In this document: positions 4,841-61,589 of the stretch, piece after piece
Layout of the letters: the number at the start of each line of letters is the position of its first letter
How positions within the stretch are numbered: position 1 is the stretch's first letter
DNA from: a virus
Taxonomy: Duplodnaviria; Heunggongvirae; Uroviricota; Caudoviricetes
IMG/VR virus record: IMGVR_UViG_3300048091_000424
Length of the DNA: 64,000 nt
Reading direction: 5' to 3' (one strand)
Translations under genes and position numbers: made by a program
The notes under the pieces: model-generated
What the model saw: the letters and a program-made list of their open reading frames with translations, nothing else
Told to the model about the DNA's origin: nothing
The model's database searches: none

Positions 4841-5132
4841 CTGCCTGCTACTCCACGGTCAAAGATTGTCGCTAAGCCATGGTGTAACTGATTTGTTTGG
4901 CTAGCCGCTGCCTAGCCTGCCACTACTTGCCTGTTATCGGCTGACCATGACGGGTGCCTCGCGGGCCTCTTCTGGTTTTTAAGAGCGAGGAAGCTTTTGC
5001 ACACTCTTGAATGCCAGAATTTCATATTTTACGAGCGTGAGGCATTCACACGCTCGTGGTCATTCTAGCTCCCTCCGATTTTCACCGTCAATTTATGCAC
5101 ATTAAATACTTTATGAATTTGCGAATGTTGAC

Positions 5133-5226: not shown

Positions 5227-6120
5227 ATGATGAAACTACGGACACTTACAAGCAGCGTCGCGGTGGTATTGGCTATGGCCTGTTCTTCTGGCGAAGCCAG
5301 GAGCCTCATGGACTTGATCCCGTCCCCGTACCAGCAGGGTTCCCGCAGCGAACAGCATGAGTCGCGTCAAAGTTCGTTGAGCCAAAGCGAGGCGCTGTCG
5401 CTGTACTCCACCCGCCAGCAACAAAACTCGTTTGACGACTGCGCTGACAAGTTTCCGCAAAACCGTCCGATCTCGATGGCCAGTGTGTCGCCCAAGATGA
5501 AGCCGATGGCACTGTGCTCTGACAACTTCGCCGTCCTCTACTCGCAAACCAGCAAAACCCCGATGGTGGTGGTTGAGCGCCTGAACTCCGCCCTGCTGCG
5601 CGACGCCAAAGGCGAAGAACGCACCAACGCCTTCTACCCGGATCCGCGCATTCCTAAAGGCGCCCGTGCCGAGCTCTCGGATTACCGTGGATCGAACCTT
5701 GACCGTGGTCACCAGTCGCCAGCAGCGGATGCCCCGGATCAAAAGGCCATGGCGCAGTCGTTCGCCCTGTCGAACATGATCCCGCAAGACCCGAACAACA
5801 ACCGTAAAATCTGGAGCAAGGTTGAGAAGGACGTGCGCAAGTACGCCCAGCGCGTTGACGGTAACGTCTTCGTGTTCACCGGCCCGCTGTATGACCAAGG
5901 TTTCCAGACCATCGGTGAGAACAAGGTGTGGGTGCCTACCCGCCTGTTCAAGCTGGTCTACGACGAAAAGACACAACGTGCCTGGGCCTATGTACTGAGC
6001 AACGGTAACACGCCGATTCAGAAACCGATGGATTATGACAGCTTCGTCAAACTCACGGGCCTGCAGTTGCTGGGCAACCTGCCGGTCTCTGGCAGTGTAG
6101 GCCGCGTGACCTCGATCTAA
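5227..6120 (+). CDS. Secreted DNA/RNA non-specific endonuclease (NucA/EndoG-type)
   Basis: Signal/lipobox-like N-terminus (VVLAMACSSG); catalytic NLDRGHQSP motif and downstream SNMIPQDPNNN. Confidence 0.9.
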   Translation: MMKLRTLTSSVAVVLAMACSSGEARSLMDLIPSPYQQGSRSEQHESRQSSLSQSEALSLYSTRQQQNSFDDCADKFPQNRPISMASVSPKMKPMALCSDNFAVLYSQTSKTPMVVVERLNSALLRDAKGEERTNAFYPDPRIPKGARAELSDYRGSNLDRGHQSPAADAPDQKAMAQSFALSNMIPQDPNNNRKIWSKVEKDVRKYAQRVDGNVFVFTGPLYDQGFQTIGENKVWVPTRLFKLVYDEKTQRAWAYVLSNGNTPIQKPMDYDSFVKLTGLQLLGNLPVSGSVGRVTSI

Positions 6121-10389: not shown

Positions 10390-10499
10390 GAAATACTCCT
10401 CAATGAATGTTGATCAATATGCTAGTCAGCATCTTCAATCGGTTCAAATGGTTAGATGTAAACGTTCGGTAAATTAAACACTGACGGGCAAAAACATTG

Positions 10500-10528
10500 T
10501 TTACAAATTGACAAAAGCATCATAGTAT
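10500..10528 (+). promoter_or_regulatory. Sigma70-like promoter TTTACA-N17-TAGTAT upstream of the sigma factor gene
   Basis: Hexamers and spacing read directly; 67 nt upstream of ATG 10595. Confidence 0.5.
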
Positions 10529-10594: not shown

Positions 10595-11353
10595 ATGTCC
10601 ACTGAACCATACCTGCGGCCTGATCGCGACGACGTCCTGCAGAAGCTGGAAAGTTACCAGCAAACTGGCTGCCAGAAAACCCTGGCATGGCTGCTGAACG
10701 AACACCGGGACATGTGTTACAGCATCGCCTACCGGTACGATCATCGGTTTGAAGTGGACGATACCTTTCAGGACTGCATGGAAATTCTGATTCATGCCAT
10801 CCGGGATCACGATTTGACCGGGTCGTACCCATTCTTTTCGTACGCCTACACCCGCGTATCCCGTGAGGTTGCTCGCAAGAAAATCCGCCAATGGTCGATT
10901 GTCAGTGTTCCGGACAACCGAGAGCTACTAAAGGTCTTTCGCAAGGTCAACAAAATGGGGATTCCGGCTTACCCGTCAGATGCTAAAGCCAAAGAAGTCG
11001 CCGAAATTCTTGATGTCAAGGTTGAGTACGTTTTCGCCGCTGCGGCGCTTTACTATAAAAAACCGATGTCTCTGGACAGCGGCACTCATAGCGACGTGGT
11101 GAGGTCAACGCTCTATGACGATTCATGCTCTCCTGAGCGAATTGTAAGTGAGCAGGATTTTGAGGCCAAACGTACCGAACTCGCTCAGAGGATGATCGGT
11201 CGACTGAACGAGCGAGAGGCTCTGGTCATCCAGCTGCGACACTTGAACGAGCCACCTTTGAAGTTGCGTGAGGTCGGCGAAGAGCTGGGCATTACCGCAG
11301 CGCGTGTGCAGCAGATCGAAACCAAGGCCATGAAGATGATGATGGCGGCTTGA
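10595..11353 (+). CDS. RNA polymerase sigma-70 family factor
   Basis: ATG at 10595 after AAGGAAG; region-2-like FQDCMEILIHAIRDHD...FFSYAYTRVSREV; region-4.2 HTH LREVGEELGITAARVQQIETKAMKMM. Confidence 0.85.
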   Translation: MSTEPYLRPDRDDVLQKLESYQQTGCQKTLAWLLNEHRDMCYSIAYRYDHRFEVDDTFQDCMEILIHAIRDHDLTGSYPFFSYAYTRVSREVARKKIRQWSIVSVPDNRELLKVFRKVNKMGIPAYPSDAKAKEVAEILDVKVEYVFAAAALYYKKPMSLDSGTHSDVVRSTLYDDSCSPERIVSEQDFEAKRTELAQRMIGRLNEREALVIQLRHLNEPPLKLREVGEELGITAARVQQIETKAMKMMMAA

Positions 11354-11421: not shown

Positions 11422-11440
11422 TGTCAATTTATGCTATAAT
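11422..11440 (+). promoter_or_regulatory. Recurrent motif TGTCAATTTA-N3-TATAAT (candidate element-specific promoter)
   Basis: Exact 10-mer plus -10-like hexamer, 29 nt upstream of ATG 11469. Confidence 0.5.
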
Positions 11441-11468: not shown

Positions 11469-12113
11469 ATGCTCGTTACCTCGCATCGCAATATTGAATT
11501 CACCATGGTGTGCGGGCACAAAGAGATTGTGTCTGACGCTATTCGCGGTTCTCGGCAGATGGCCGAGGAAAGGCGAAACCTGGCCAGCATGCTGTGCTCC
11601 ACATGCGTGAGGGTGCTTGAAGGCTGGCTTAAGGCCGATCATGGTCAGCAGGCCTACCCGATGGACTTCCCGGTGCTCAACGGCGCTTCGGATGCCCAGG
11701 TGAGGTTCGCCTCCGACATGCGCCTGAAAGAATTCAAGAAGTACGGCCCCATCATGCAAACCTTGAGCAAAGACAGCACCGAACTGGCCAAGTTTGCCTG
11801 GCGTGCCCTGTACATGTGCTTCATGGTCACCGATAGCCGCTACTGGCTGGACGAACGGAAGCGATTCAACCATCACGTTTGGGGCGGCGAGATCCAGCGC
11901 CTGATGAAGGAGCCTGGGTTCAGCGACCGTGTATCGTCGTCTTCGGCCTACGGTTTCTTTTACAACAGCCGCGCACGTGACTCGATCAGCTACTTCATGG
12001 CGATCAACCCGGCTTGCGATCTTCAGGGTAAAAACCTGCCATTGATGCGGTTCTGGACGAAGGAAATGTTCAAAACCACGGTGGAGGTAGAGGAAGACCG
12101 GCAGGCGAGTTGA
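11469..12113 (+). CDS. Hypothetical protein (214 aa)
   Basis: Protein-like ORF preceded by promoter motif; preferred over antisense ORF 11424..12194. Confidence 0.55.
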   Translation: MLVTSHRNIEFTMVCGHKEIVSDAIRGSRQMAEERRNLASMLCSTCVRVLEGWLKADHGQQAYPMDFPVLNGASDAQVRFASDMRLKEFKKYGPIMQTLSKDSTELAKFAWRALYMCFMVTDSRYWLDERKRFNHHVWGGEIQRLMKEPGFSDRVSSSSAYGFFYNSRARDSISYFMAINPACDLQGKNLPLMRFWTKEMFKTTVEVEEDRQAS

Positions 12114-13470: not shown

Positions 13471-15204
13471 CTAAAGGTAGGCTGACAACAGCGAGTCTAG
13501 GGGCTTTGAAACCTGGGCCTTAGCAACCTGAACCGTTTCGACAGGCTTCAGGTTGTAGTCGGCTGCCATGTCTTTGTAAACCGCAATCGATGCGTCGACA
13601 TCCGCTTGACTGGCAACCCCGGTGTACCTGGAGTAATGATTCTCCATCGTGGTGTGAATGTCCTCGGCCAATTTCATGGCCAACGGATCATCAGTGCGCT
13701 TGAACAGCATTTTCCTCGTCGCAGAAATCTCGCTCCACATCGCCTTCACTGCGGGTGTGAACATCGTATCCGAGTTAAGGCGCAACTCCCCAGGAAAATA
13801 GGTTCCATCCTTGGCCATGAAGTTCTTCTCCATAAGGAACTTGGCAATCTCCGGAATTTCTTCTTTGGTTTTCATATGGATCGCCGCAGGATCTATCTGC
13901 GGAAAAATCTCATCGAGTGCCCAAGCGGTTTTGTGCGCGTAGTCGTTTACCGTCGAGATTCGCATGGGGCGAATGAGGTCGGTGTACAAATCATTGGTGC
14001 CTGTTTCACGCATGTAATCCAGGCTGGCAACCAGGTCACCGAAGGTTTCCTCAAGGCTGCGTTGATAAGCCAGTTGCATATCAGACAGATCCCTGTCCCC
14101 AGCACCTGGTTGATCCAGCTGGAAGAAACAATGACCCCCTTCGTGTGATTTCATAAAGAAATCCCAAAGGTTTTTGTCTACTAGCATCTCCGGCATGTTG
14201 CTGAATTTGTAGAAATTACCGTCTTTTGTGACCGGGGCAATCTGGTGGTGGTGGACTATACAAAGTGCGCTCTCCGAGGCCTCACCAGGCTCAACCATTT
14301 GAGCTAGGCCTCCCACCTTGTCCGCTGTAAAACTGTCGATGGATTTCTGCAAGGTGTGATCACGGGCATAATTCTTAACCATCTGAATGCCGTCAAATTC
14401 GCCGAACTGGACAATCTTGCGTTCCGAGACCTTGTCCTTGGACAACACTGTTTCTATCGTTGGCCGCGATTGCAGGTCAACCAGACCAAATCCACTGGTG
14501 GTATTCGCAAACCCAGTGGCATAAATGCCGCCAAGAGTAATGCTGGCCAGCACCGCTGCCACCACCCCAAGCTTTAGACCCTTTTTCAGGTAAAGGGTCA
14601 GTGGCTTGTCCTTGAGTGCTTCCACGTCCACAGACGCCGGCGCCGAATCGACCATGGTCAGGAAGTCGCGGCTCTCTGCGCGGTTCTTGTCCACCCACTG
14701 TGATTCTGAAATTTCAGTTTTAACGCTGGTCAGCGACAGGCCTGGGTGGATTGAGGCACAAATTCTGCTGAAACCGCTGTTGAAGTGCTCCAGTGAACCG
14801 ATGTCGTGGCATGCACGCCTGGTCATTTCAACCAATCCGTCGCGAGCGTGCTCGCCGCCTAGCAACGACGTCAGGTCTTGCGCATACATCTCGCCCAGGT
14901 GATTGTTGATGCCACTGTGAAGCGGCTTATAGAGGCGCTCATTGTCGGTCAGCAGTGCACTGGTCAGCATCATGCCCTTTGACTTTGGGCTCAAAGCGTT
15001 CATGAACTCGAGTGATGGGTAGTTGATCTCGGGGTGACTTGCCGTAGCTGACAGGTCGACCAGGCTAGCCAAGACCGGTGAGTAGCCCGCCGAGTCGACG
15101 ACATCTTCAAGGCGAACCTGCCCAACCGCGTATCCGCTTAATGCACCCGACAAATGTAACTTCAGCGCTTCGTTAACCATGTTTTGGGATCTCCTTTCCG
15201 ACAT
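13471..15204 (-). CDS. Membrane-anchored protein with HExxH metalloprotease-type motif
   Basis: 577-aa ORF; one TM segment (LGVVAAVLASITLGGIYATGF); FMKSHEGGHCF contains H-E-x-x-H. Confidence 0.5.
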   Translation of the reverse strand: MSERRSQNMVNEALKLHLSGALSGYAVGQVRLEDVVDSAGYSPVLASLVDLSATASHPEINYPSLEFMNALSPKSKGMMLTSALLTDNERLYKPLHSGINNHLGEMYAQDLTSLLGGEHARDGLVEMTRRACHDIGSLEHFNSGFSRICASIHPGLSLTSVKTEISESQWVDKNRAESRDFLTMVDSAPASVDVEALKDKPLTLYLKKGLKLGVVAAVLASITLGGIYATGFANTTSGFGLVDLQSRPTIETVLSKDKVSERKIVQFGEFDGIQMVKNYARDHTLQKSIDSFTADKVGGLAQMVEPGEASESALCIVHHHQIAPVTKDGNFYKFSNMPEMLVDKNLWDFFMKSHEGGHCFFQLDQPGAGDRDLSDMQLAYQRSLEETFGDLVASLDYMRETGTNDLYTDLIRPMRISTVNDYAHKTAWALDEIFPQIDPAAIHMKTKEEIPEIAKFLMEKNFMAKDGTYFPGELRLNSDTMFTPAVKAMWSEISATRKMLFKRTDDPLAMKLAEDIHTTMENHYSRYTGVASQADVDASIAVYKDMAADYNLKPVETVQVAKAQVSKPLDSLLSAYL

Positions 15205-15260
15205 AATCTCATAGCCGCCTCATGTTGTTCAAAATCCTCGTTTGCATTACATAAAATGGT

Positions 15261-15279
15261 TGTCAATTTAGCCTATATG
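15261..15279 (+). promoter_or_regulatory. Recurrent motif TGTCAATTTA-N3-TATATG (TATAAT also at 15282)
   Basis: Exact 10-mer upstream of the RNA ligase gene. Confidence 0.45.
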
Positions 15280-15433
15280 CTTATAATGATGGCCATTCAT
15301 TCACCTAACCTTTTGCGAGTCGATCATTTGATCAATTCCATGACATTCGCCGGCAGGATCAACTGCCTCGTTTCAGCCTAGCGCCCTTCCCTCGCACATT
15401 TTTGCGGGCCCGGCGCCTGTAGAGATTGCGATC

Positions 15434-17983: not shown

Positions 17984-18143
17984 ATCCTTTGAACTTGGGG
18001 TTTTCCACGTGCACAAGGATGAGCAGTGGATCACCTTCGAGGTCATTCAGGAGGATCTGAAGGGTCGCTGAGATACCGATGTGTATTATCTTGATTCCTG
18101 TATACAGCTAAACACAGAATAATATGAAATTCATATGAAGTTA

Positions 18144-18169
18144 ATAGGATAATAATATTATTATCCTAT
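18144..18169. promoter_or_regulatory. Perfect 26-bp palindrome ATAGGATAATAATATTATTATCCTAT (operator-like)
   Basis: Self-complementary by direct reading; a half-site copy ATAGGATTAAAAAATATTAT lies at about 18253..18272 next to TTGACC-N17-TACCAT. Confidence 0.6.
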
Positions 18170-18343
18170 GTATATCGAGTCATGAGTTACTAATTATCTT
18201 CAAGCTGATACTAGTGCAGTCATGGCTCTCGATGTAAAAATGTAAGTTTTTACATAGGATTAAAAAATATTATTTGATGTATTGACCTGCAAAAATCTCA
18301 TCATTACCATTTTATGAAGCTGAAGCTCATATAGGTAATCTTT

Positions 18344-20767
18344 ATGCAAGACTCTCATACGATAAAAATAGAAGCCGCTAAGAAGTCTATCGCCTCAGGA
18401 ATTTTCAACCTGAGCCACCTCGAAGACTTTCGGAGTGAATTTGATAACCTGAGTTGGAAGAAGCTCACTGCCTTCGGCGGTGAGAATATGAATGCCCTTT
18501 CCTCTTCTGACCAGGTTTTTATCAAGGATATTCTGGCCAAAGCCCTTGGGATTGATATTCAGGATTTGACACCTGACAGCTTGTTCAGCCCGCATAGGTC
18601 GTTACAGATTTTGCAGTCCATCAGAGTCGGCCAACCCGTACACGAGTTAATGTGGGAGCTATCAGTAGAGGCCAAGAGATACATCGATCATTTGATACAT
18701 GCTCATGGTGAGGAAAAACCAGTTTTTAAATTCCTGGTCGGAAACCCTGGTTCAGGGAAGACGACCTTTAGAAATCTGCTGCAATCTAAACTAGATCCGA
18801 GTTCTCCAATCATCCATAACACATTTGGCGCACAAACGACTGGGAACACTATTCACCTTGCGTGTGCATTCCTGTTCGATAAGGTAATGATTGATTCAGC
18901 GGCGAAAAAACTAAAGGAAACGAAGCTTCGTGATGCGCGGGCCTACGGGAATATAAAGAAATACGCAATGTCCCACAATTACTATCAGGTGCTGTCTCCT
19001 TTATTTGGCTACGCTGAATCAGATAAAGATGGATCGCTGGCCGAATTTGTTAATGAATATCACAACGCCGTGAACTGTTGGATTAAGAAAGACACAGTTG
19101 GAGAACTTAAATCACTTCAAAGACATTATGGTGAACCCTGCGAGGTAATGCCTAGACCAAAAGAGTCGAATTCAATAAACTTTACTGCACAGATAATGAG
19201 TTTCTATAGCAAGATCGGACTTTATCCGGTTTGGTTAATGGACGAGTTCGAGGCTCACGAATCTCTTTACCGCGCTTATAGAATTAAAGTTTTGGACTAT
19301 TTCCGTGGGTTCTTTGACATTTTATCTGACCCGAGTTCTAAAGGCTTCTGCCTGATTTTCTCCACTGAAGCTGGCATGCACATCATTGATAGCTATCCAG
19401 CTTTAAGTGACAGACTCTCTTCTGGTAAGTATTTTTCGCTCACTCAAGCCATCTGGAGGCTGTCGGCACTAGATAAATGGAATAATGAGTATGCAATCAA
19501 GGTCATAAAGGAGTTGTACCACGCATCAGCTCAAATTGACGATATTTCTGAGGCTGTAGATAGAGCCATAAGCGAACTTGGTGGTGAACTTGACCTTGTA
19601 TTGAACAGAGAGTTCAACAAGGAAGTCGCTAGAAATCGTTTGACCCCAACTGTGACTGGCCTACTTGATCCACTATCTGAACCAGACTCGACAATAAAAA
19701 CAGACATCAAGAAAATCGCCGACAAAATTAAGTCGATTGAAGCCGCTGCAACTCAAGTGACTCGTGCTTGTTATGAACCAGAAATGGAAAACATTAAATC
19801 ACCAACTAGTGACCAGCAACACGCTGGTAACCTAGTCTTAGCTAAGGAAAATTACGACCCTACAGCAGCTGTTGTATTGATGGAGTATGCTGCCGGCAAG
19901 GATCGTAACCGTGATCCGTTCGAAGACGATCCATTCGGTGATGATCAGTTAGTAGAATCTTCAGAAGATGATGACTTCGACAGTTTTGATGGGTTCGAAC
20001 TGCCAAACCTGTACGCAAGTGATTATCGAGGTGAAGCTGATTTTATTGAATACCTAATTAGCTTCGAACATAACATCACCAATATTACAGTCGACAACTT
20101 GAGACCGCAGCAAATCAAGGAAAGTTCAATATTCAACTTCTTTGCGCGTAACAAGCACAAACACTCAGCCAAGTGGCCGGCACAACTGCAATTTAATAAA
20201 AAACCTCTAGAGTTTTCTGGCGAGCTAAATAGTAGTGATTTAAAATTCATTATCAGCGATTTCGAAAAATCCAGGTCACCCTCAAGCCTGGCTAAGAAAT
20301 ACGCAAGGTTTCGTGATTTGGGTGGCCGTTACGAAAACCTTCCATTGCAAATTCAGACTGCGATAGAAGATAAACTACCAGAAATCAACAAGCAATTTAA
20401 CTTCAACCTTAATCTTATTTTATCAGCTGTGGCGAGCGACCACCTCCTACCAACGGTTAAGATAACAGACCTGAAAAGGATACAGTCGGATGGAGACAAC
20501 ATAATCTCTATCCAAGGTCAGTCAGTCACACAACTCGTTCGGTGGAATGTGTTTGAGACGCTGTCTCTTACCAGATCACTTGTTTATGCCTACGCGTTCA
20601 ACTCAGGATATTTCCCACCTGATGCAGAGGTGGATGAGTATGTCCTTGAATGGCACGAAAAATTGGGGATGACGAAAATTACGCCAGATCGAAATGGGGT
20701 TTTCTTCTACTCGAAAGATGGCCTATGGGATAAGGAACTCCAGAATATCCGTAATACGTGGGAATGA
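18344..20767 (+). CDS. Large P-loop NTPase (807 aa) in an AT-rich island
   Basis: Walker A FLVGNPGSGKTTF, Walker B-like VWLMDEFE; acidic linker DPFEDDPFGDDQLVESSEDDDFDSFDGFE; composition visibly AT-richer than the flanks. Confidence 0.8.
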   Translation: MQDSHTIKIEAAKKSIASGIFNLSHLEDFRSEFDNLSWKKLTAFGGENMNALSSSDQVFIKDILAKALGIDIQDLTPDSLFSPHRSLQILQSIRVGQPVHELMWELSVEAKRYIDHLIHAHGEEKPVFKFLVGNPGSGKTTFRNLLQSKLDPSSPIIHNTFGAQTTGNTIHLACAFLFDKVMIDSAAKKLKETKLRDARAYGNIKKYAMSHNYYQVLSPLFGYAESDKDGSLAEFVNEYHNAVNCWIKKDTVGELKSLQRHYGEPCEVMPRPKESNSINFTAQIMSFYSKIGLYPVWLMDEFEAHESLYRAYRIKVLDYFRGFFDILSDPSSKGFCLIFSTEAGMHIIDSYPALSDRLSSGKYFSLTQAIWRLSALDKWNNEYAIKVIKELYHASAQIDDISEAVDRAISELGGELDLVLNREFNKEVARNRLTPTVTGLLDPLSEPDSTIKTDIKKIADKIKSIEAAATQVTRACYEPEMENIKSPTSDQQHAGNLVLAKENYDPTAAVVLMEYAAGKDRNRDPFEDDPFGDDQLVESSEDDDFDSFDGFELPNLYASDYRGEADFIEYLISFEHNITNITVDNLRPQQIKESSIFNFFARNKHKHSAKWPAQLQFNKKPLEFSGELNSSDLKFIISDFEKSRSPSSLAKKYARFRDLGGRYENLPLQIQTAIEDKLPEINKQFNFNLNLILSAVASDHLLPTVKITDLKRIQSDGDNIISIQGQSVTQLVRWNVFETLSLTRSLVYAYAFNSGYFPPDAEVDEYVLEWHEKLGMTKITPDRNGVFFYSKDGLWDKELQNIRNTWE

Positions 20768-20780
20768 CCTTCTCTTAGGC

Positions 20781-20806
20781 AAAAAACCGCCCCCTTCGGG
20801 GGCGGT
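20781..20806. terminator. Strong GC hairpin after the NTPase gene
   Basis: AAAAAA-ACCGCCCC-cttcg-GGGGCGGT; the A-run precedes it, so the U-tract is better on the minus strand. Confidence 0.7.
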
Positions 20807-20910
20807 CTATTGCGCATCCTGGGAAATTTCGAGGCCCAGAAAAGCAACTTTGACGCAGGAATGACGCGCCCCATAAACTGGGGTATGGCAACGTATTTTG
20901 AGTCCAACCC

Positions 20911-21516
20911 ATGCGCAAGCTGCCCAACTTGAAAGATCGGTTTTTCTACCACGGATCCCCGTGCTCCATTGATGTCTTCGACTACAAGTTCGCCGAGAAC
21001 GGGCAGGGATTTGGCTTTTACTTCACCACGGATAAATCCGGCGCCGCAGGCTTTTGCTCCGAAAACCCCATCACCAAGGCGGCGGGGTTACCTTTCGTCC
21101 CGACACTTCACAAAGTCCGCCTAAAGGTAGAAAACCCACTGGGTCACCAGCATGTCCAGGCGCTGACGAAGGCCCAATGCCGGGAGATCATTAAACGCGC
21201 TCCAAACCTCGAGGAAAGGCTCTGGAACACCTGGGATGTCGATAGCCTCGGTGCAGACAAAGCGCTGGATGAGGCAGCCAAGCTCTTTAGCGGCAAGGAT
21301 TGCATCCTCATCAGTACACTCAACCAAATCGCCAACGAATTCTTTGAGGGCGAGATGGGGGCGCTCAGCTCTGCCCTGCGCGACGTGACTGGTTACGACG
21401 GCTTGATCCGCACATGCGGTAAAGATGTGACGATCATGGCCTGGTTCCCTGACCAGGTCGAAATCGTGTCTCGCATCGACCCAGCTCTCGAACTGGATGA
21501 GGCGCCTGCACCATGA
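20911..21516 (+). CDS. Hypothetical protein; possible ADP-ribosyltransferase-like (ART-PolyVal-type) enzyme
   Basis: FYHGS...GFGFYFTT...GYDGLIR...AWFPDQVEIV recalls the H-Y-E ART pattern of polyvalent-protein ARTs (from memory, unverified); stop overlaps next start (ATGA). Confidence 0.5.
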   Translation: MRKLPNLKDRFFYHGSPCSIDVFDYKFAENGQGFGFYFTTDKSGAAGFCSENPITKAAGLPFVPTLHKVRLKVENPLGHQHVQALTKAQCREIIKRAPNLEERLWNTWDVDSLGADKALDEAAKLFSGKDCILISTLNQIANEFFEGEMGALSSALRDVTGYDGLIRTCGKDVTIMAWFPDQVEIVSRIDPALELDEAPAP

Positions 21517-22634
21517 GTGACACTACCCCAAGCGCCTTCGACCAGTTGGTAAAAATCCGCGTTGAAATCCGCAAGCATTGTAAGTCTCAGACTGGCGGCG
21601 ATCCGATGGACGTCTACGACCTCCTGTCCGACTACTGTGACATCTTGGAGCGCCTGGCCACCCAGCGGCAATATTCGGTCATGGCCACGGCCATGGATCG
21701 CCTCAACACCGTCGCTGAAGATTTGTTTCAGCGTCCGCACATGGTGCCGGTGATCGCCGATTTGTTTTTGGAGCGCCTCCCCTTTAGTCACCGCACGGTA
21801 TTCAACCTCGCTGGAAGTTTGACCGGCGTGCTGCGTGAAAACCTGTCGCAACTTGCTGTCGAAAACCTCATAGCCCACGAGGCATTTCTTTCAGATAGGG
21901 ATGAGCATCTCGCAGGTGGCGTTATCCGAAATCTGCTGCGCTATTGCGATAGTCCAGCACCGGCTTTGCAGTACGCGCAGTCGATCCTGCCCCTGTTCAA
22001 TAGTAAGACGTCGGGTTTTGAGTCAGTCCTAAGCGCCATACTCGACAGTAGAACATTGAAAAATATGCCTCATGAGAAATTCCAGCCTTTGGTGGAATGG
22101 GTGTCAGAGCTCGATGTTCTTACCTTGTGCCAAGGGCTAAAGCCGGGCTATGCCACGAAAGAGAGAGTCGCCATCTTCCGCGAAGCGGGCTTACCTCTTC
22201 TCGCCGATGGCCTCTACTATAAAAACAACCAGGTGAACGCTCGGGAGATGATCGAAATCCATAGGCGAACAGGCCTTAAACCCGACGCGGCATACCTTGA
22301 TCAATTCTTCGGCCAGGGTAAAACCCCTGAGGCGAGGGAGCTTCGCGAGCTGCTGAAGTATTCTTTGGCAGTTGAGAACGTTTTCCCACTGGACTGGGAG
22401 GGAATCAAAGCACCGTGGGTCACCAGCTCCCTGGTAGATGCTTTTGCCCGCCTCGAGCAGATGGGTGTAAGACCCCGCTCTCCTGAGGAATGCGAACCGC
22501 TGATTTCACAGTTGGGCGATCACCTTAGAAGCTCGGAAAACATGGACTCGCTGCTCAACAAAAAGACTAAGCCATACCTGCAGATCTCCCATAAATTTAA
22601 CGGCAAGCTGTTTGGCCTAGAACTCGGCCTTTAG
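21513..22634 (+). CDS. FxxDLGL-tail family protein (373 aa), subtype A
   Basis: Ends KLFGLELGL; shares LLKYSLAVENVFP and PRSPEECEPLIS with 25072..26253. Confidence 0.75.
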   Translation: MSDTTPSAFDQLVKIRVEIRKHCKSQTGGDPMDVYDLLSDYCDILERLATQRQYSVMATAMDRLNTVAEDLFQRPHMVPVIADLFLERLPFSHRTVFNLAGSLTGVLRENLSQLAVENLIAHEAFLSDRDEHLAGGVIRNLLRYCDSPAPALQYAQSILPLFNSKTSGFESVLSAILDSRTLKNMPHEKFQPLVEWVSELDVLTLCQGLKPGYATKERVAIFREAGLPLLADGLYYKNNQVNAREMIEIHRRTGLKPDAAYLDQFFGQGKTPEARELRELLKYSLAVENVFPLDWEGIKAPWVTSSLVDAFARLEQMGVRPRSPEECEPLISQLGDHLRSSENMDSLLNKKTKPYLQISHKFNGKLFGLELGL

Positions 22635-22644
22635 GGAATTTTCA

Positions 22645-23841
22645 ATGTCAAACCAAATTGCCCGTGATCTGACGCAAGCCGCACAAGCGCTGATCCGAAC
22701 CGTGAACGGCACCAATCCGGGCGAAGATGTTCTGCACCAACAATTATGGGATCTGGCTAATGCGTGCCATCTGGCCAAGCAAAATGACAGCCTCAATCTC
22801 CTGGCGCGTGCTCACCAGGCGGTAAAGGAAACGACACGAGGGTTCATGAACCTGGTCACACGTCGTGGATGTCCCGATGTCATCGCTCAGTACCTGGAGT
22901 TGTTTCCTCTCCATGAGCAATACGCTGAGGAGTTTTTGCAGATCATTCACGAATCGGAGTGTCTCAATGCGGCAGATAAGAGCCGCTTGCTTGGGGATCT
23001 GGTCGACAATGTTATCAAGCATGAAACCTTCACCGTGAAAAATCAGTTTGGGGGCACCGACTTCTACGACGCCCGCAAGTTTCTGGTGATGAATCTGAAT
23101 GGCTTCGAATTCGAAGAGGGCAAAAGCCTCGACTCCACGCCGCTTGGCAAATTCTGTACGAATCTCTGCGAGATCCGAAACGATGCCGCCGCCATCATAA
23201 TCACCACGTTGAACACGGCGGAAAGTGCCCGGTCGGCCAATGCGGCTGTTGGATACAAAGCTCTAGGATATTGGTTCAATGGTCATCAGCCGGATCTGTT
23301 TTTGGGTGTGATGCGCAACAATCCGTCTGACTACAATACCTTTAACATTGTGCAAACAACGAGGGATACGCTTGAGGCGCCCTACCTCGCCGCTTGCCTC
23401 AATATGCGTTCAATCGATCCTGATTTTGAGATCCTGATCGAAGGCCTTAAAACCTATGAACTCAGGGTTGATGAGACCTTTAAACGCACGATGGCGTACG
23501 ACTCTGATGGAGAGTCAATGCGAACTCTTTCTGAGGGAACTCTGGAGACATTGATCGCATACTCACTCACCGTCGAACATGTCTTGCCCCACGCCATACA
23601 GACTGTTGGGACGAAGTACGACCTCATCACAGCATTGGTCAACGCCGGTCGAGAAGTGGCGAAGCCCGAGTACCAGGCGTTTGATAGCAAAGCCAGGGCT
23701 CAAGAGGTCGTCGACTTTGTAATGGACAGGGTCACCGGGAAAGAGGACTTCTCCCAGATGGAGACCAGTTGGCTACTGCCGTATGCTCAAAAGAACCTTA
23801 CCTACCTCAAGCACGCGTTCAGTCGTGACCTAGGATTGTGA
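22645..23841 (+). CDS. FxxDLGL-tail family protein (398 aa), subtype B
   Basis: Ends NLTYLKHAFSRDLGL; collinear with 23882..25069. Confidence 0.75.
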   Translation: MSNQIARDLTQAAQALIRTVNGTNPGEDVLHQQLWDLANACHLAKQNDSLNLLARAHQAVKETTRGFMNLVTRRGCPDVIAQYLELFPLHEQYAEEFLQIIHESECLNAADKSRLLGDLVDNVIKHETFTVKNQFGGTDFYDARKFLVMNLNGFEFEEGKSLDSTPLGKFCTNLCEIRNDAAAIIITTLNTAESARSANAAVGYKALGYWFNGHQPDLFLGVMRNNPSDYNTFNIVQTTRDTLEAPYLAACLNMRSIDPDFEILIEGLKTYELRVDETFKRTMAYDSDGESMRTLSEGTLETLIAYSLTVEHVLPHAIQTVGTKYDLITALVNAGREVAKPEYQAFDSKARAQEVVDFVMDRVTGKEDFSQMETSWLLPYAQKNLTYLKHAFSRDLGL

Positions 23842-23881
23842 AATGTCTACCCGCCACCCATATCAACGAAGGAACGGATAA

Positions 23882-25069
23882 ATGACAACTCTGACGAGTA
23901 GACTCGCCACAGCGACCAAGGCTTTGCAATCCAGCCTAGAGCTCCGACATCCTTCCCCCGAGGTGTTGATGCAGCAACTGCACGACCTGGCGGAGATCGG
24001 GTATCAAGCCCATGGCACATTCAGCGTCAACCTCTTGGCAAAGCTTGATGGTGCGTTGAAGGACTGCACGCGAGGGCTGATGAGCAACCTGGAACGCAAC
24101 GAACATCCCGAAGTCATCGAGCTATTCCTTCAGCTGTTTCCTGTAAACGACCATTACGTCGTTGAGTTTATGGAAACAATCTGTCGTTGCGGGACTCTGG
24201 ACATAATTGAAAAAAGGAACCTGAGGGAGAAGCTGATTGCCAATGTGATCAATCATGAGACCTTGGCCACCTATGGTCGCGACGCCATCCTGAACCATAG
24301 CGCCGCGATAAACTTCATAGAGGCCAGCATGGACGGGTATGGCGATGGCGGCGAATCAGCTACTGTCGACAAGGTCTTCACTGACTTTTTCAAGTCAATC
24401 GTGCAGACACGATACGAGGGTGCCAATGTGCTTATGCGTGCGCTAAGCGCCAAAGAAGCCAATCCAGGCATCACCAAGCTGGACGGGTGGAAAAAGCTCA
24501 AGGCATGGCTCCTGGACAATGAACAGTTCGTAATCAGTTGCGTGCTAGCCAACGGGATGTCGGATTACAATTCCGCATCCAGCATCCTGCATGCTCAAAA
24601 TAGCTTGGGCTTACCTCACCTGGCCGCTGCCTTGAACCTACGGTCTTCAGATCCAATTTTGAAGGTTCTGGTTGAGGGTCACACCATCTATGGTTTGTCA
24701 GTGGATGAAAGCTTCATGCAGGGTATTGGCCTTACCGACGGTGGAACCCAGCGCAAGTTTGATCATCTTACCCTCGAGTGTCTCCTCGCCTACTCCTTGA
24801 TGATAAAACCCATTTTGCCTGACCCGCTGGAGCCCAAGGCCGCGAACAGCTTGGTTGAGTCTCTTTGCGCGGCTGCCAACATAGTTACTTTTGAGCAGTA
24901 TGAGAGGTTTGACTGCAAACCTAACGCTCAAGCGGTTGTCGACTTTGTGATGGAACGTGTGACCGGAAAAGAGAATTTTGCCCTGCTCGAAGACAGCTGG
25001 CTGCGCCCTTACGCCGAGAAGAACCTGACCTACTTGAAACACGCGTTCACTCGCGATTTGGGATTGTGA
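23882..25069 (+). CDS. FxxDLGL-tail family protein (395 aa), subtype B
   Basis: AAGGAA RBS; ends NLTYLKHAFTRDLGL; AQAVVDFVMERVTGKENF matches AQEVVDFVMDRVTGKEDF. Confidence 0.75.
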   Translation: MTTLTSRLATATKALQSSLELRHPSPEVLMQQLHDLAEIGYQAHGTFSVNLLAKLDGALKDCTRGLMSNLERNEHPEVIELFLQLFPVNDHYVVEFMETICRCGTLDIIEKRNLREKLIANVINHETLATYGRDAILNHSAAINFIEASMDGYGDGGESATVDKVFTDFFKSIVQTRYEGANVLMRALSAKEANPGITKLDGWKKLKAWLLDNEQFVISCVLANGMSDYNSASSILHAQNSLGLPHLAAALNLRSSDPILKVLVEGHTIYGLSVDESFMQGIGLTDGGTQRKFDHLTLECLLAYSLMIKPILPDPLEPKAANSLVESLCAAANIVTFEQYERFDCKPNAQAVVDFVMERVTGKENFALLEDSWLRPYAEKNLTYLKHAFTRDLGL

Positions 25070-25071
25070 TT

Positions 25072-26253
25072 ATGCCCACTCAGAACGCCCTACCCCCCAT
25101 TGTCCGTGACATCAGCCGGTACAATGACTTGCTCACAATCAATAATGAGTTGTACCGATTGGTTGTGACTGATGACCCGGATCCGCTCCTCGTTCACGCG
25201 CTGATGGTCGACTTCATTCAGGGAATGGATGACCTTGCGACCCAGCGCCTGCATGTCCTGGTGGGGAAAGCAGCCGCGATGATGGATGTGACCATTCTGG
25301 ATCTGTTCAAGCGTCCGGCAATTGCTGAAGTCATTTCTGAGTTGTACTTCCAACATTTTCAGGCACCGATTCGTCTGGTGTTCAGTATCGCTGCCGGGCC
25401 GGAAGGCCAACTGCTGACGGATGCATATAGCGATGAGCTGCGTGATGCTTTGGTGGCTCGGGGCGTCGAGAACTTGATCGCCTACGATGCTTTTACCACT
25501 GACACCGACCAGCATCTCATGGATTCGTTGATCATCCACATTCTTCGACTTAGCGAGCAAACTCAGCCAGCAGTGGACTTGTGCGACGCTATTGTGGGAC
25601 GTCGTAATGACAAAAAAGCAGGCATCGATGTCATATTTTCAGCGGTTTACATCGCCATCCAGGACGCAAAATATAAACCCGACGCTACCAGGCCTTTATT
25701 GGCTTGGATGCAGGGCAGGCAAGCTGATTTGGTCAACCAGATGGTCAATACCAAGCAGGGAATTTGGATGGCTATGGAACTGACTGACTTTTTTCAAAGC
25801 AACGGGCTGCAAGATCTTGCGGATCGCTGGTACCTTCGCTCCAGCTACTTGGATTTTCAGCGTTTGTACGCCATTCATCAGCGCTGTGGCTTGAAACCTG
25901 ATCAGGATTATCTGCAGCAATTCATCGCTGCCGATTGCAGCCCATCCATTAAGCTACTGGGTGACTTGCTCAAGTATTCGCTTGCAGTCGAAAATTTTAT
26001 CCCTGACGCCAGTAAACTCACCTTCAAGCCGACCTGGGTCACCAAATCCTTGGTGGATGCCTTCAACACCTTCCGCGAAATGGGCATTGAACCCCGCTCA
26101 CCAAAAGAGTGTGAGCCACTGATTTCCCTTTTGGCTGGGCATTTGAAAAGCGAAGAAACCATGACTCCCCTAATGGCCAAGGAAATCCAGCCCTACATCG
26201 CGATCTCGAATAGCTTCCAGACTAAAATGTTCGGCATGGACTTGGGTCTGTAG
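25072..26253 (+). CDS. FxxDLGL-tail family protein (about 393 aa), subtype A
   Basis: Track ORF 25066..26253; ATG at 25072; ends KMFGMDLGL. Confidence 0.75.
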   Translation: MPTQNALPPIVRDISRYNDLLTINNELYRLVVTDDPDPLLVHALMVDFIQGMDDLATQRLHVLVGKAAAMMDVTILDLFKRPAIAEVISELYFQHFQAPIRLVFSIAAGPEGQLLTDAYSDELRDALVARGVENLIAYDAFTTDTDQHLMDSLIIHILRLSEQTQPAVDLCDAIVGRRNDKKAGIDVIFSAVYIAIQDAKYKPDATRPLLAWMQGRQADLVNQMVNTKQGIWMAMELTDFFQSNGLQDLADRWYLRSSYLDFQRLYAIHQRCGLKPDQDYLQQFIAADCSPSIKLLGDLLKYSLAVENFIPDASKLTFKPTWVTKSLVDAFNTFREMGIEPRSPKECEPLISLLAGHLKSEETMTPLMAKEIQPYIAISNSFQTKMFGMDLGL

Positions 26254-26311
26254 GCCACCACACAAAAAGGGCCATGTAAATTTTTCTGGCTTAAGAATTA
26301 CGGAGTTAACA

Positions 26312-27514
26312 ATGTCAACTGATCCATTTGCCCGGCTCGAAAACATCAACCCCGGCATGGGCCGACAAGCCATGTGCGATGCCATCGTGGATGTCGGCAA
26401 GGCCCTTGAGGCAGCGCTACCAGCGTACGGCAGGATCACCTTGATCTCGCTGAGTCAGCAGATATTACAACTGCGCACGGAGCTGCTGGAAGCATTCCCG
26501 CTGATGGAGGATCCTGCCCCGTACCTGGCGCTGATTTCAGCCCTTCCGCTTGATATGAAGGCAGCACACCAGCTGACCTATGATTTTGGCAAGCTTGGTG
26601 ATGATCCCGGTCATGGGCCGGTGCTTTTTGAATTGACCCGTGCGCTGGTGGATAACTTAAAACGCAACAATACCCTCGAGCGCGAGGCTGAATTTTTCAA
26701 GCACTCACACACCCCTCGGGCAGCTGGAGATATCGTGTGGACAACCACCGATTTTGAAAGGGATTTTGATGACTTTGCTTACCTCCTGCTGGATAGTCAG
26801 GCGAAAGACCCACACTGCTGCCTCGACCTGGTCGAGCACGTATTTTCTTTTTCCATCAATTGCCGCGACCTCAATCTTCAAGGAGGCTTGCTAACGGCAA
26901 TGCTGGCCCTCAACACGACATTCAACCATGAATCCGCATGCTGGCCAGCCGTGAAGCAATGGCTCAAGACCCACGAAGATCGGGTCTGCACGAGCTTGTT
27001 GAGCCAAGGCTGGAGCCGACAATTCAAACCGGAGCTGGCCCAGAAGGCCTTGGCACTTGGCTACCCGAAACTGCACAATGCGATAGTGCTCCGCAGTTGC
27101 CGGCACAATGAAAGCAACTTTCTGGCGCTTAAGCGGTTCCACGGGATCGATCCCGATCAAACCTGCTACGACATCATCTTGAAAAATCATCGTGACGAGG
27201 CCTGTGGAGCAGACAGCACGAGTCTTACAGCCTTGTTGGCGCACGCCCTGGTGTACGACCACCAGATCCCGGAAGACTGGATGATCAAGGCTTCAGACTC
27301 ACCGCTGAAATTGCTGGATAGCGCATATCAGGAAGTCAAAAAGAATGGCTTAGTGCCATCCATTGACAAACTCCACGACTTGTTTGAGAAGTCCTTACGA
27401 AAGTTGCGTAATGATCGAGATTTGACGTGGCTGGAGTCGTCAATATTTGCCCCATTTCTCCGTCAGTCATTGGCCTATCAGGCTGAGCGCTTCGGGCAGG
27501 ATTTAGGCCTTTAG
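26312..27514 (+). CDS. FxxDLGL-tail family protein (400 aa), subtype C
   Basis: GGAG RBS; ends ERFGQDLGL. Confidence 0.75.
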   Translation: MSTDPFARLENINPGMGRQAMCDAIVDVGKALEAALPAYGRITLISLSQQILQLRTELLEAFPLMEDPAPYLALISALPLDMKAAHQLTYDFGKLGDDPGHGPVLFELTRALVDNLKRNNTLEREAEFFKHSHTPRAAGDIVWTTTDFERDFDDFAYLLLDSQAKDPHCCLDLVEHVFSFSINCRDLNLQGGLLTAMLALNTTFNHESACWPAVKQWLKTHEDRVCTSLLSQGWSRQFKPELAQKALALGYPKLHNAIVLRSCRHNESNFLALKRFHGIDPDQTCYDIILKNHRDEACGADSTSLTALLAHALVYDHQIPEDWMIKASDSPLKLLDSAYQEVKKNGLVPSIDKLHDLFEKSLRKLRNDRDLTWLESSIFAPFLRQSLAYQAERFGQDLGL

Positions 27515-33005: not shown

Positions 33006-33125
33006 GGTGACTTTTCCTAAGGTTTGATTTTGAGTCCGAGCCTTTTCTGTCTGGGGTCTCGCTTTCTGTCAGTATAGCCATACTATACTCGAAAATCCAG
33101 CCACCAACAAAACAATGACATTCTA

Positions 33126-33154
33126 TTGACACCTTTTTTGGTGGCCAGTAGACT
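33126..33154 (+). promoter_or_regulatory. Sigma70-like promoter TTGACA-N17-TAGACT for tRNA cluster 1
   Basis: Hexamers and spacing read directly; 18 nt upstream of tRNA-Asn. Confidence 0.6.
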
Positions 33155-33171: not shown

Positions 33172-33247
33172 TCCGTGATAGCTCAGTCGGTAGAGCATCG
33201 GACTGTTAATCCGAGTGTCCCTGGTTCGAGTCCAGGTCACGGAGCCA
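33172..33247 (+). tRNA. tRNA-Asn(GTT)
   Basis: Hand-folded cloverleaf: acceptor TCCGTGA/TCACGGA, anticodon arm TCGGA-CTGTTAA-TCCGA, TTCGAGT T-loop, encoded CCA. Confidence 0.9.
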
Positions 33248-33259
33248 GCCTTACGCACT

Positions 33260-33346
33260 GCCCGAATGGCGAAACTGGTAGACGCATGGGACTTAAAATC
33301 CTCTGCTCGAAAGGGCGTCCCGGTTCGACTCCGGGTTCGGGCACCA
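33260..33346 (+). tRNA. tRNA-Leu(TAA), class II
   Basis: Acceptor GCCCGAA/TTCGGGC, loop CTTAAAA, long variable arm, encoded CCA. Confidence 0.85.
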
Positions 33347-33356
33347 AGAATTCAAA

Positions 33357-33440
33357 GCCGAAGTGGTGGAATTGGTAGACGCGGCTGATTCAAAATCAGT
33401 TGCCTACGGCGTGCGGGTTCGAGTCCCGCCTTCGGCACCA
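33357..33440 (+). tRNA. tRNA-Leu(CAA), class II
   Basis: Acceptor GCCGAAG/CTTCGGC, loop TTCAAAA, long variable arm, encoded CCA. Confidence 0.85.
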
Positions 33441-33448
33441 AACAAGAA

Positions 33449-33717: not shown

Positions 33718-33741
33718 TTTCAAATATTTTTAAAATTGCTG

Positions 33742-37262: not shown

Positions 37263-37435
37263 GAAAAGTACCTATGTGAATGAAGGTTACAGCCGCAGCT
37301 GGCTCGCTTTGCACAACTCACAAACTATACCGATATATTGACACTGCGACAAACAACATGCCTGTGACACTGGCGCCAGCCAGACCGCGTGCGTCACACT
37401 TAAATATCGTCGCAATCACTTCAGGCTGCCGCAGC

Positions 37436-42218: not shown

Positions 42219-42237
42219 AATATACCTTAAATTGACA
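42219..42237 (-). promoter_or_regulatory. Recurrent motif TGTCAATTTA-N3-TATATT (minus strand)
   Basis: Exact 10-mer; 44 nt upstream of start 42175. Confidence 0.5.
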
Positions 42238-42276
42238 AAAATATGAAATCGGTTTTTCCGCTAACCGTCCAGGGCC

Positions 42277-44021: not shown

Positions 44022-44108
44022 AAAATATGGGCGGATGGTACGTAGCAGATTGATAAACTGTCAATATATACGTATTGTTTCAAGGGGTTAAACACACCTC
44101 ATTCATGC

Positions 44109-54757: not shown

Positions 54758-54783
54758 GATCCAACCTCTTAGTCTGTTGCCAT

Positions 54784-54802
54784 CATACGCGATAAATTGA
54801 CA
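54784..54802 (-). promoter_or_regulatory. Recurrent motif TGTCAATTTA followed by TCGCGTATGAT (minus strand)
   Basis: Exact 10-mer; 27 nt upstream of start 54757; the -10-like element is less clear. Confidence 0.4.
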
Positions 54803-60175: not shown

Positions 60176-60410
60176 TGCCAAACCTCTAGTTTTAGGAAGC
60201 GAGGCGAGACACCGGTAGGAGCCCTTTCTCGACTTTTGAGTGAGTGGAGTAGCCCCGAGCATTCAATCCGATAGGATCGGTACTGGGCCAGAGCCAAACG
60301 CGAGAGGGATTATTGCGAATATTGACGACTTGTCAATACATGTGGAATGTTTTTATGGCGTTTTGATGCCAGCCTGCCGAACAGTGGTGCCCGGCAGGAG
60401 GTGCGATAGG

Positions 60411-61457: not shown

Positions 61458-61561
61458 TCCTATTTTTCTTATTGATTTATAATGACAAAATTCACGAAGA
61501 AAACAATCTATTTGTTGTCAATTGAATGCAGAAAAAACATTAAAAAAAGATGCACCATCAA

Positions 61562-61589
61562 TTGACACACGGTAAAGGCCAGGTATACT
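61562..61589 (+). promoter_or_regulatory. Sigma70-like promoter TTGACA-N16-TATACT
   Basis: Hexamers read directly; 34 nt upstream of ATG 61623. Confidence 0.6.

Follow-up and report, generated by a model that had tools for sequence, protein, structure and literature searches.

What is the function of a 10-mer that recurs just upstream of genes on a single stretch of DNA, each time close to a hexamer resembling a -10 element? The question arises from a stretch of 64,000 nucleotides (hereafter, the window), catalogued as a virus of the Caudoviricetes (IMG/VR record IMGVR_UViG_3300048091_000424), which contains repeated copies of TGTCAATTTA, a form of the sequence TGTCAATWTA that we refer to as the box. 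According to a preliminary description of this DNA, the box, placed 3 nt upstream of a TATA-rich hexamer, may mark an element-specific promoter class, with a sigma-70-family protein encoded nearby as the candidate reader. We found that the motif is real, locked in position to the -35 element, conserved beyond the core hexamers and recurrent as a palindrome with a free centre. Judged by its sequence context, it appears to be a cis-regulatory site of a familiar kind, set in promoters that belong to a mobile element, rather than a new promoter class, the core machinery looking like host sigma-70 recognition. Tentatively, we interpret TGTCAATWTA as a possible operator half-site.

Exact copies of TGTCAATTTA are located at 11422-11431(+), 15261-15270(+), 42228-42237(-) and 54793-54802(-). 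Since only 0.10 copies are expected in the window and none of 100 shuffles gave four, the earlier claim of at least four non-random copies was borne out; allowing up to one mismatch raises the count to 16, against 3.4 expected. The composite TGTCAATWTA-N3-5-TAnnnT occurs six times (0.00 expected), each time at a gene 5' end and with a TAnnnT -10 hexamer at all six sites. This search added 37334-37343(-) and 44059-44068(+) to the sites listed previously. On our own codon-usage gene map, whose calls are crude, five of the six composite sites are intergenic (binomial p = 3e-4) and the sixth falls inside the doubtful 5' end of a divergent open reading frame (ORF); all three that lie in co-directional spacers are oriented with the genes. 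The next start codons faced by the four exact copies are ATG 11469, ATG 15434, TTG 42175 and ATG 54757, respectively. Checked base by base, the accompanying hexamers are TATAAT preceded by TGC (11432-11440), TATATG (15274-15279), TATATT (42219-42224, minus strand) and TATGAT (54782-54787, minus strand). The reported N3 gap holds at 11422 and 42237; at 54802 it is N5, and the relatives do not share the TATATG found beside 15261. As for the near matches, the one placed at 10507..10516 does exist, but its true position is 10504-10513(-), where it is read from the opposite strand of the sigma gene promoter, within the spacer, and the one placed at about 61547 is really two copies, 61516-61525(+) and 61558-61567(-).

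The window turned out to be part of a Pseudomonas megaplasmid of ~1 Mb, not a phage: its sigma gene is 100% identical on "plasmid unnamed1" of Pseudomonas serbica IT-P366 (NZ_JAQIYM010000090.1; 1,059,468 bp). A phage origin was considered and rejected. The RNA ligase encoded in the window is 41-53% identical to jumbo-phage proteins, but there is no phage DNA match or viral-contig relative, and the locus resides on the 1.06-Mb plasmid. The megaplasmid appears to be a distant cousin of the pMPPla107/pBASL58 family, judging from its GC content (about 53% in the window), an 11-gene tRNA array, Ter-type genes and a sigma homologue, 28-29% identical, found by protein search in both pMPPla107 and pBASL58. 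Megablast against these two plasmids gave no match, the similarity being only distant and at the protein level. Both are ~1 Mb in size, with a GC content of about 53% and large tRNA arrays including repeated tRNA-Glu(ttc) (PMC6482414). Our main comparison was with the syntenic sister plasmid pPL1 of P. silesiensis (1.17 Mb, 70-85% DNA identity), sampled over 396,169 bp, about a third of that one replicon; pPL1 is unannotated, so gene and intergenic calls there come from our own crude map. Additional relatives are metagenomic. L006 and L008 were identified through the sigma protein (83% and 50% identical), whereas L022, L024, L019 and L020 were identified through the 344-aa protein encoded at 53723-54757 (84%, 75%, 55% and 54%).

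In the pPL1 sample, intergenic DNA makes up 14-15% of the 396 kb and yet harbours 18 of the 21 copies of TGTCAATWTA, as well as 22 of the 25 sites of the form TGTCAAT-N5-9-TAnnnT (p = 1.6e-15). Rather than being equally frequent within genes, an outcome that the preliminary description had named as counting against its proposal, the motif is strongly depleted there. An unbiased k-mer scan of the sample returned ATTGACA/TGTCAAT as the most over-represented intergenic 7-mer (49 observed versus 9.1 expected) and AATTGACA as the top 8-mer (30 versus 2.7).

These occurrences are of two kinds. In class A, TGTCAAT is followed by TAnnnT 5-9 nt downstream; in class B, it is the complement of an ATTGACA-N16-18-TAnnnT promoter on the other strand. 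Among the 50 intergenic TGTCAAT sites of pPL1, 22 are class A, 14 are class B and five are in both, and the full TAWATTGACA is present in about 6 of the 14 class-B promoters. Within co-directional spacers of pPL1, it is ATTGACA that points towards the gene in 24 cases and TGTCAAT in nine. Therefore, the commoner role of the motif is that of its reverse complement, TAWATTGACA, which is the extended -35 of canonical promoters. In its minority role, TGTCAATWTA is found in the spacer of sigma-70-type promoters, starting 3 nt, sometimes 4, past the position of the -35 and ending 3-5 nt before a TATnnT -10. Class B is represented in the window by 61558(-) and 33125(-), and 44059 belongs to both classes. 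The promoters at the first two sites are the following.

61561..61589, plus strand: ATTGACA-N16-TATACT promoter (core TTGACA-N16-TATACT) of the gene 61623-62288.
33125..33154, plus strand: canonical ATTGACA-N17-TAGACT promoter upstream of the tRNA array, in which tRNA-Asn starts at 33172.

The copy of TGTCAATTGA at 61558-61567(-) is the complement of the extended -35 of the 61561 promoter. The divergent intergenic region in question, 61458-61622, contains inverted TGTCAATTGA copies (61516+ and 61558-), 32 nt apart and flanked by ATGCA/TGCA, which together form a larger inverted repeat with an A-rich centre; only the right copy is explained, by the -35 of the promoter for 61623. The tRNA array itself (33172-35083) consists of 11 genes (Asn, Leu x2, Glu x3, Asp x3, Arg x2) with repeated Glu/Asp units, and has a further canonical ATTGACA-type promoter at about 33740.

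The surroundings of the class-A box are those of sigma-70 promoters. In pPL1 the -10 consensus of class-A sites is TAT(A/T/G)(A/G)T, and TTGnnn is present 16-18 nt upstream of the -10 in about half of them; properly spaced -35 elements are found, for instance, at 360427, 413485, 571508 and 378627. Where TTGnnn and TATnnT flank it at the canonical distance, the box lies in the spacer, and the sites do not look like a -35-less, factor-specific promoter class. The -35 is absent or mis-spaced at 11422, where TGn is found instead, and at 54802. Part of the initial assessment was sound: TGTCAA, lying 6-9 nt from the -10 hexamer, is indeed too near to serve as a -35, and the association of the 10-mer with promoters, next to a -10-like hexamer, is supported.

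The position of the box within the spacer is not arbitrary. In 103 promoter-like intergenic sequences of pPL1, the top position-specific spacer 4-mers, counted from the -35, are TGTC, GTCA, TCAA and CAAT at spacer positions 4-7, with 5-8 cases each, whereas no 4-mer count exceeds 4 when the same sequences are anchored on the -10. Likewise, among 38 TTGACn promoters, TGTCAA begins at spacer position 4 in all four spacers that contain it. The box is phased to the -35 (N3, sometimes N4) and not to the -10. Being fixed in this way, it leaves variation in spacer length to fall between the box and the -10, hence the N3-5 gap.

A good -35 and a box phased in this manner make up a palindrome, TTGACA-N3-TGTCAA. 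The modal spacing of the inverted halves is TTGAC-N5-GTCAA, which occurs at 10 sites across the plasmids. Pairs of the complete 10-mer half-sites (23-mers) also peak at N3, with six in pPL1 and two in the window, compared to 0-3 at other spacings and none in shuffles. One of the palindromes in the window belongs to the following promoter.

60309..60337, minus strand: TerC/DUF475 promoter with -35 TTGACA 60336-60331, N3, CGTCAAT 60327-60321 and -10 AATAAT 60314-60309.

Here TTGAC-N5-GTCAA occupies 60322-60336, the 23-mer being TATATTGACAAGTCGTCAATATT, and the gene (59150-60262) has a Pfam DUF475/TerC match. The window, pPL1, L019 and L020 (~55% protein identity) all retain ATTGACA-N3-C[G/A/T]TCAAT...TCGCAATAATC, with both arms conserved and the centre free. 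The right arm, located in the spacer, is unable to act as a -35 for any promoter.

The individual promoters of the window that carry the box or a box-like element, along with the sigma gene, are listed below.

10595..11353, plus strand: sigma-70-family gene, 252 aa from ATG, with an alternative GTG start at 10541.
10500..10528, plus strand: promoter of the sigma gene, TTTACA-N17-TAGTAT (sigma-70 scan), with box-like TGACAAA at 10509-10515, 3 nt after the -35.
11422..11440, plus strand: box TGTCAATTTA 11422-11431, TGC and -10 TATAAT 11435-11440 (extended -10), for the 214-aa gene 11469-12113, directly 3' of the sigma gene.
15260..15287, plus strand: TTGTCA 15260-15265, N16 and TATAAT 15282-15287, with the 10-mer (15261-15270) overlapping the -35, for the RNA-ligase leader and gene.
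37324..37352, minus strand: -35 TTGTCG 37347-37352, box TGTCAATATA 37334-37343 and -10 TATAGT 37324-37329, for the SPFH/Band-7 gene 36324-37262.
42219..42247, minus strand: -35-like TTCATA 42242-42247, box TGTCAATTTA 42228-42237 and -10 TATATT 42219-42224, for the gene 41774-42175.
44035..44078, both strands: bidirectional core, with box TGTCAATATA 44059-44068 in the spacer of the rightward promoter.
44050..44078, plus strand: rightward promoter, TTGATA 44050-44055, N17 and TATTGT 44073-44078 (sigma-70 scan).
44064..44035, minus strand: leftward promoter, box complement TTGACA 44064-44059, N18 and TACCAT 44040-44035, towards the ATP-grasp (Ter) gene (sigma-70 scan).
54782..54802, minus strand: box TGTCAATTTA 54793-54802, N5 and -10 TATGAT 54782-54787, for the 344-aa gene 53723-54757.

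The promoters called by the sigma-70 scan are 37352(-), 42247(-), 44050(+), 10500(+) and 15260(+), the last with a score of 11/12. The product of 36324-37262 has a Pfam Band_7 match, and the 214-aa protein encoded after the sigma gene has only four homologue clusters.

The relatives allowed us to see which parts of these promoters are retained. At 11422, a promoter of the extended -10 (TGn) type without a usable -35, the spacer has a sole conserved island, nGTCAATTnA-TGCTAT(A/C)(A/C)T, in four relatives with sigma proteins 50-83% identical. At 42237, the window, pPL1, L019 and L020 share TGTCAAT-WYA-N3-TATATT without change (the protein used as a marker being ~55% identical in the latter two), while the -35 drifts, reading TTCATA or TTGGCA. 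The 44059 core keeps TGTCAATATAT invariant in four genomes, with the leftward TAC(C/T)AT conserved too. In promoters of both these types, the box is invariant while the hexamers drift among relatives. The 37352 promoter is kept in pPL1 as TGACAATTTA-TGGG-TATAGT with diverged flanks. The box at 54802 is kept in pPL1 and L022 and reads TGGCAATATA (TGGCAAT) in L024, whereas in L019 and L020 it is degenerate; in these two the -10 persists without a good box, and CGCGTATGAT/CGCGTATATT is kept. Another promoter, at 12185 (TTGACG-N17-TAGATT), is kept in four relatives and has a box in the spacer only in L006. Variants of the box that are specific to a lineage also occur, such as TGTCAATTGA in L008. 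Overall, these alignments indicate that the box is under selection in its own right, yet that promoters can exist without it.

The promoter of the sigma gene features TTGTT(G/T)ACAAATTGnCAA and TA(G/T)TATTTnGCCATCAA (TA(G/T)TAT), conserved in four relatives, and in L008 it holds a perfect TTGACA-AAT-TGTCAAT. In pPL1 (L005, about 21470-21500, orthologous to window 10490-10520) this region reads AACAATGTTGACAAATTGACAACATTGTT, in which tandem TTGACAA repeats are enclosed by an inverted repeat of 10 bp (AACAATGTTG/CAACATTGTT); this may represent a separate autoregulatory site.

Could the box simply be a -35 after all? The copy at 15261 does differ in geometry from the others, since the promoter there is TTGTCA-N16-TATAAT; TTGTCA(A/T)TT(T/G)A and TATAAT are invariant in four relatives. 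As a general explanation, however, T plus box as a forward -35 had to be rejected: it is true only at 15260, and T precedes the box in just 1 of 11 class-A sites of pPL1. The complement of the box as a -35 was accepted for 44059, 61558, 33125 and many pPL1 sites. It was rejected for 11422, 42237 and 54802, where no -10 is found 16-18 nt away in any relative and no gene lies in that direction. At 11422 such a role is precluded by the co-directional arrangement of the flanking genes; the genes around 42237 are co-directional as well, and no leftward -10 or opposite-direction gene is present there.

How might these features be explained together? The reading we favour, though our confidence in it stays a little short of even, is that TGTCAATWTA is an operator half-site for a dimeric, probably plasmid-encoded regulator that occludes the -35. 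The complete operator would be a palindrome of about 23 bp, TAWATTGACA-N3-TGTCAATWTA, situated inside sigma-70-type core promoters of the megaplasmid-family backbone. Its left half would double as the extended -35, whereas the right half, the 10-mer, would fill the spacer one helical turn downstream, roughly from -26 to -17, ending 3-5 nt before TATnnT. By analogy, a half-site one turn away from the -35 on the same face of the helix, in a palindrome with a free centre, is best matched by the standard geometry of dimeric helix-turn-helix proteins. As the bound protein would cover both the -35 and the spacer, its most plausible effect would be negative, namely, repression or gating of backbone promoters. 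Putative targets in the window include the sigma gene, the gene after it, the TerC gene, the SPFH gene and several genes of unknown function. The apparent dispensability of the box at 12185 and at 54802-type promoters likewise fits a regulatory add-on better than a core recognition element.

A number of observations do not sit well with such an operator. Reading through the genes that flank the best palindromes, without a database search, revealed no obvious DNA-binding candidate, and Pfam and NCBIfam found no convincing regulator among the neighbouring proteins. The sites 11422, 42237 and 54802 possess only one half, a well-conserved right half with no recognisable left arm, an arrangement hard to reconcile with a dimer. 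Where pPL1 spacers lie between co-directional genes, six class-A-pattern sites are oriented with the genes and nine opposite to them; a simple rule that copies always face the gene, true of the four exact copies of the window, was not confirmed in pPL1. Inspected singly, the opposite-facing sites are mostly canonical other-strand promoters or one triplicated module. In addition, the half-site has a core exactly complementary to the -35 consensus of sigma-70, and a -35 on the other strand therefore accounts for some of the enrichment and for one invariant box at least (44059). Finally, a fixed position with respect to the elements recognized by RNA polymerase (RNAP) would equally be expected of an activator that contacts RNAP.

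An activator of this sort, encoded by the plasmid and bound to the box near -22, might recruit or stabilise host RNAP at promoters with a weak or absent -35, as Lpa does in P1. In its favour, the centre of the box core falls at about -22 to -24, locked in both position and orientation beside the -10, and conserved sites without a usable -35 are known (11422 and 54802 in the window; 547714, 382913 and 684829 in pPL1). However, half of the sites have a good -35 at the canonical spacing, in some cases a perfect TTGACA, which makes an activator needless, and a protein sitting on the palindrome would overlap the -35 needed by sigma region 4. Considering also that orthologous promoters persist without the box and that the 10-mer itself is not an inverted repeat, we regard an activator as unlikely. 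It is not very likely either that the box has no dedicated factor at all, being used by host RNAP only or arising as a by-product of opposite-strand -35 elements, of spacer sequences tuning RNAP binding or of copied promoter cassettes. Such an origin would agree with the majority role of the 7-mer as a canonical -35, with the five pPL1 sites in both classes and with 44059, which is demonstrably bidirectional, both of its -10 elements being conserved; the semi-conserved tgGCATAT following the box could also mean common promoter descent. On the other hand, 11422, 42237, 54802 and the TerC promoter have no opposite -10 or gene, yet their box is conserved amid diverging flanks, and neither strict N3 phasing nor a palindrome with a free centre would be expected from RNAP alone. 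We are more doubtful about a farther-reaching possibility, a replicon-wide regulator reading the extended -35 TAWATTGACA in either orientation, or else a P1-Lpa-like plasmid activator system. If true, it would mean that one protein gates a large share of the promoters of a 1-Mb replicon, the canonical ones via the -35 and class A via the spacer copy, in effect a replicon-wide, promoter-targeted silencing or licensing system.

As to the plasmid sigma, the reader proposed initially, it is very improbable that TGTCAATWTA and the TATA-rich hexamer together define a promoter class of its own. Its gene adjoins the best-conserved site and has a box-like element in its promoter, and sigma and motif co-occur in the window plasmid, pPL1, L006 and L008. 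The protein matches Pfam Sigma70_r2 and r4 and can be aligned end to end with group 1-3 sigmas, and it is group-3-like. The NCBIfam equivalog and subfamily models (RpoH, FliA, RpoD and others) all score below cutoff, and it passes only the generic sigma-70 superfamily model TIGR02937 (68.5 bits versus a cutoff of 42.9). Residue changes were read from a HMMER alignment to M. tuberculosis SigA, with motifs taken as RpoD-like and with E. coli sigma-70 numbering. The residues reading the -35 are changed (R584A, E585A and R588Q), and so are those of region 2.3/2.4 (W433T, W434R, Q437R and T440A); the roles of these residues in promoter reading are reportedly known from structural work by Campbell and colleagues in 2002. 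With all of them replaced, the plasmid sigma is unlikely to read TTGACA or TATAAT. On one hand, such differences from RpoD suggest a non-canonical target. On the other hand, the TATnnT and TTGnnn around the boxes are canonical and fit RpoD, not a sigma without W433/W434/Q437/T440 and R584/E585/R588, whose altered region 2.4 should go along with a departed -10. Two recognition blocks ~12-18 nt apart would be expected for an alternative sigma, and in a holoenzyme with a full-length protein of this kind (regions 2-4) region 4 is set about 16-18 bp from region 2, whereas the gap here is 6-9 nt. No holoenzyme of the sigma-70 family is known to read blocks so close together. Nor does the position frequency matrix of pPL1 class-A sites reveal another conserved block at 15-18 nt downstream. 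Nothing beyond proximity speaks for the nearby sigma as the reader. Even less credence can be given to binding by IHF (consensus WATCAANNNNTTR) or another nucleoid-associated protein of the host. The core TCAA(T) is invariant, the TerC variants include CATCAAT, and 6-7 of the nine specified positions match by eye; however, position 2 is mostly G, not A, the TTR part is usually unmatched, the positions left free by IHF (WTA) are conserved in the box, and no upstream A-tract was seen.

Several other candidates were tried and discarded. A MerR-type spacer operator needs spacers of 19-20 bp, and those observed here are 16-18 bp long. The FNR/Anr box (TTGAT-N4-ATCAA) has a spacing different from the N5 found here, and none of the LexA, PhoB and CRP consensus sequences fits. 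The sigma-54 signature GG-N10-GC (TGGCAC-N5-TTGCW, -24/-12) is present at 0 of 6 sites, and the sole TGGCA variant (9331) points away from genes.

Setting the box against known systems, we find that repressor operators in core promoters of mobile elements (IncP KorA at the -10; LexA- and CI/Cro-type palindromes across the -35/-10) are alike in being recurrent, conserved and partly palindromic sites of ~20 bp. Their half-sites are likewise one turn apart with a free centre; within one replicon they overlap the -35 and spacer at many promoters, among them one that drives a regulatory gene (in our case, sigma). The present site differs in that its half-site core is the -35 consensus and in that many single half-sites occur in fixed orientation beside the -10. 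A KorA-like ORF is located near 6.2-6.4 kb (Pfam KORA on a JGI gene call), with no link to the motif made.

In P1, the Lpa repeat is said, by Lehnherr and co-workers in 1992, to lie at about -22 in place of the -35. Altogether 11 P1 late promoters have this site, a 9-bp inverted repeat (PMC10695390). Like the promoters studied here, they combine a sigma-70-type -10 with a box whose centre lies in the low -20s and which is repeated at numerous promoters of a single element. The P1 box, however, is an inverted repeat and takes the place of the -35, whereas the 10-mer lacks symmetry and a canonical -35 is retained in about half of its promoters. The resemblance to T4 middle promoters noted in the preliminary description fails on both sequence and spacing. 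In T4, the MotA box, (a/t)(a/t)(a/t)TGCTTtA, has its centre at -30, with 11-13 bp between it and the -10. Both elements are non-palindromic boxes of ~9-10 bp in fixed orientation upstream of TAnnnT, but the one described here has another sequence and ends 3-5 bp from the -10. Moreover, it co-occurs with canonical -35 elements, which AsiA-type sigma appropriation would make useless. No MotA or AsiA homologues were found in Pfam, PHROG or NCBIfam scans of about 35 window proteins.

Closer to the window plasmid, 100 kb sampled from pMPPla107/pBASL58 have ATTGACA-type -35 elements as dense as those of pPL1 and one TTGACA-AAT-TGTCAAG promoter. The box-plus-TAnnnT arrangement, common in pPL1, is found at 0 of the 23 TGTCAAT sites in that sample, and consequently the use of a spacer box seems enriched in the serbica/silesiensis clade.

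The acquisition of pMPPla107, the member of the related family that has been studied, leads to large phenotypic changes and fitness costs in the host, and the transcription of million-base Pseudomonas megaplasmids is almost unstudied. A position-locked box marking the promoters of the plasmid sigma, a tellurite-resistance-like cluster and several backbone genes offers a concrete way into the question of how the genes of such a replicon are coordinated or restrained by the replicon itself.

The tellurite-resistance-type genes form part of the backbone (42873-44021 and 57828-60262) and include the ATP-grasp 'Ter' (Pfam) and TerC/DUF475 genes, as well as two ORFs of ~197 aa whose L019/L020 orthologues have TerD domains. 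All relatives, down to 54% identity, keep this set in synteny. In pPL1 (555200-558360, L011), one module recurs behind each of three tandem paralogous genes of ~274 aa. It is made up of a bidirectional terminator hairpin and TGTCAATTTWTTACTAAACTG(A/G)CACCTGGCGCC, and the box in it faces against the genes and has no obvious promoter role.

The RNA-ligase promoter is separated from its ATG by a leader of ~145 nt (15289-15433, plus strand) that is ~90% conserved in four relatives with 50-83% sigma identity. RNAalifold predicts nested hairpins for it, GGCAG/CTGCC and GCGCC[CTCGCA..GCGGG]GGCGC (-31 kcal/mol, one compensatory pair), and an Rfam search returned no match even at E<=1; the leader is a candidate for a novel cis-regulatory leader or small RNA. 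Upstream of it, on the opposite strand, a 577-aa ORF (13471-15204) is present in L006 and L008 and absent from pPL1, and the pPL1 alignment after this ORF resumes exactly at the first base of the 10-mer, 15260/15261.

Other differences between the replicons were also noticed. The nuclease gene 5227-6120 has no match in the 46-kb syntenic segment of pPL1. It follows a non-coding block of 159 bp (4898-5055) that is 95.6% identical to pPL1, the flanking genes being about 74% identical. The region 17984-20910 is a low-GC island (41.7% versus about 53%) that carries a gene for an 807-aa protein, with weak AAA_22, Zeta_toxin, BrxC/D and DUF6035 matches, and an AT-rich upstream region of 360 nt. It is missing from pPL1, L006 and L008, whereas metagenome contigs nearly identical to the window do have it, and it resembles an insertion of a defence-type gene. 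Further along, downstream of a gene with an ART-PolyVal domain, five successive same-strand ORFs of about 373-400 aa (21513-27514) show some DNA-level cross-matches in the pPL1 comparison, which suggests a tandem paralogue family of unknown function.

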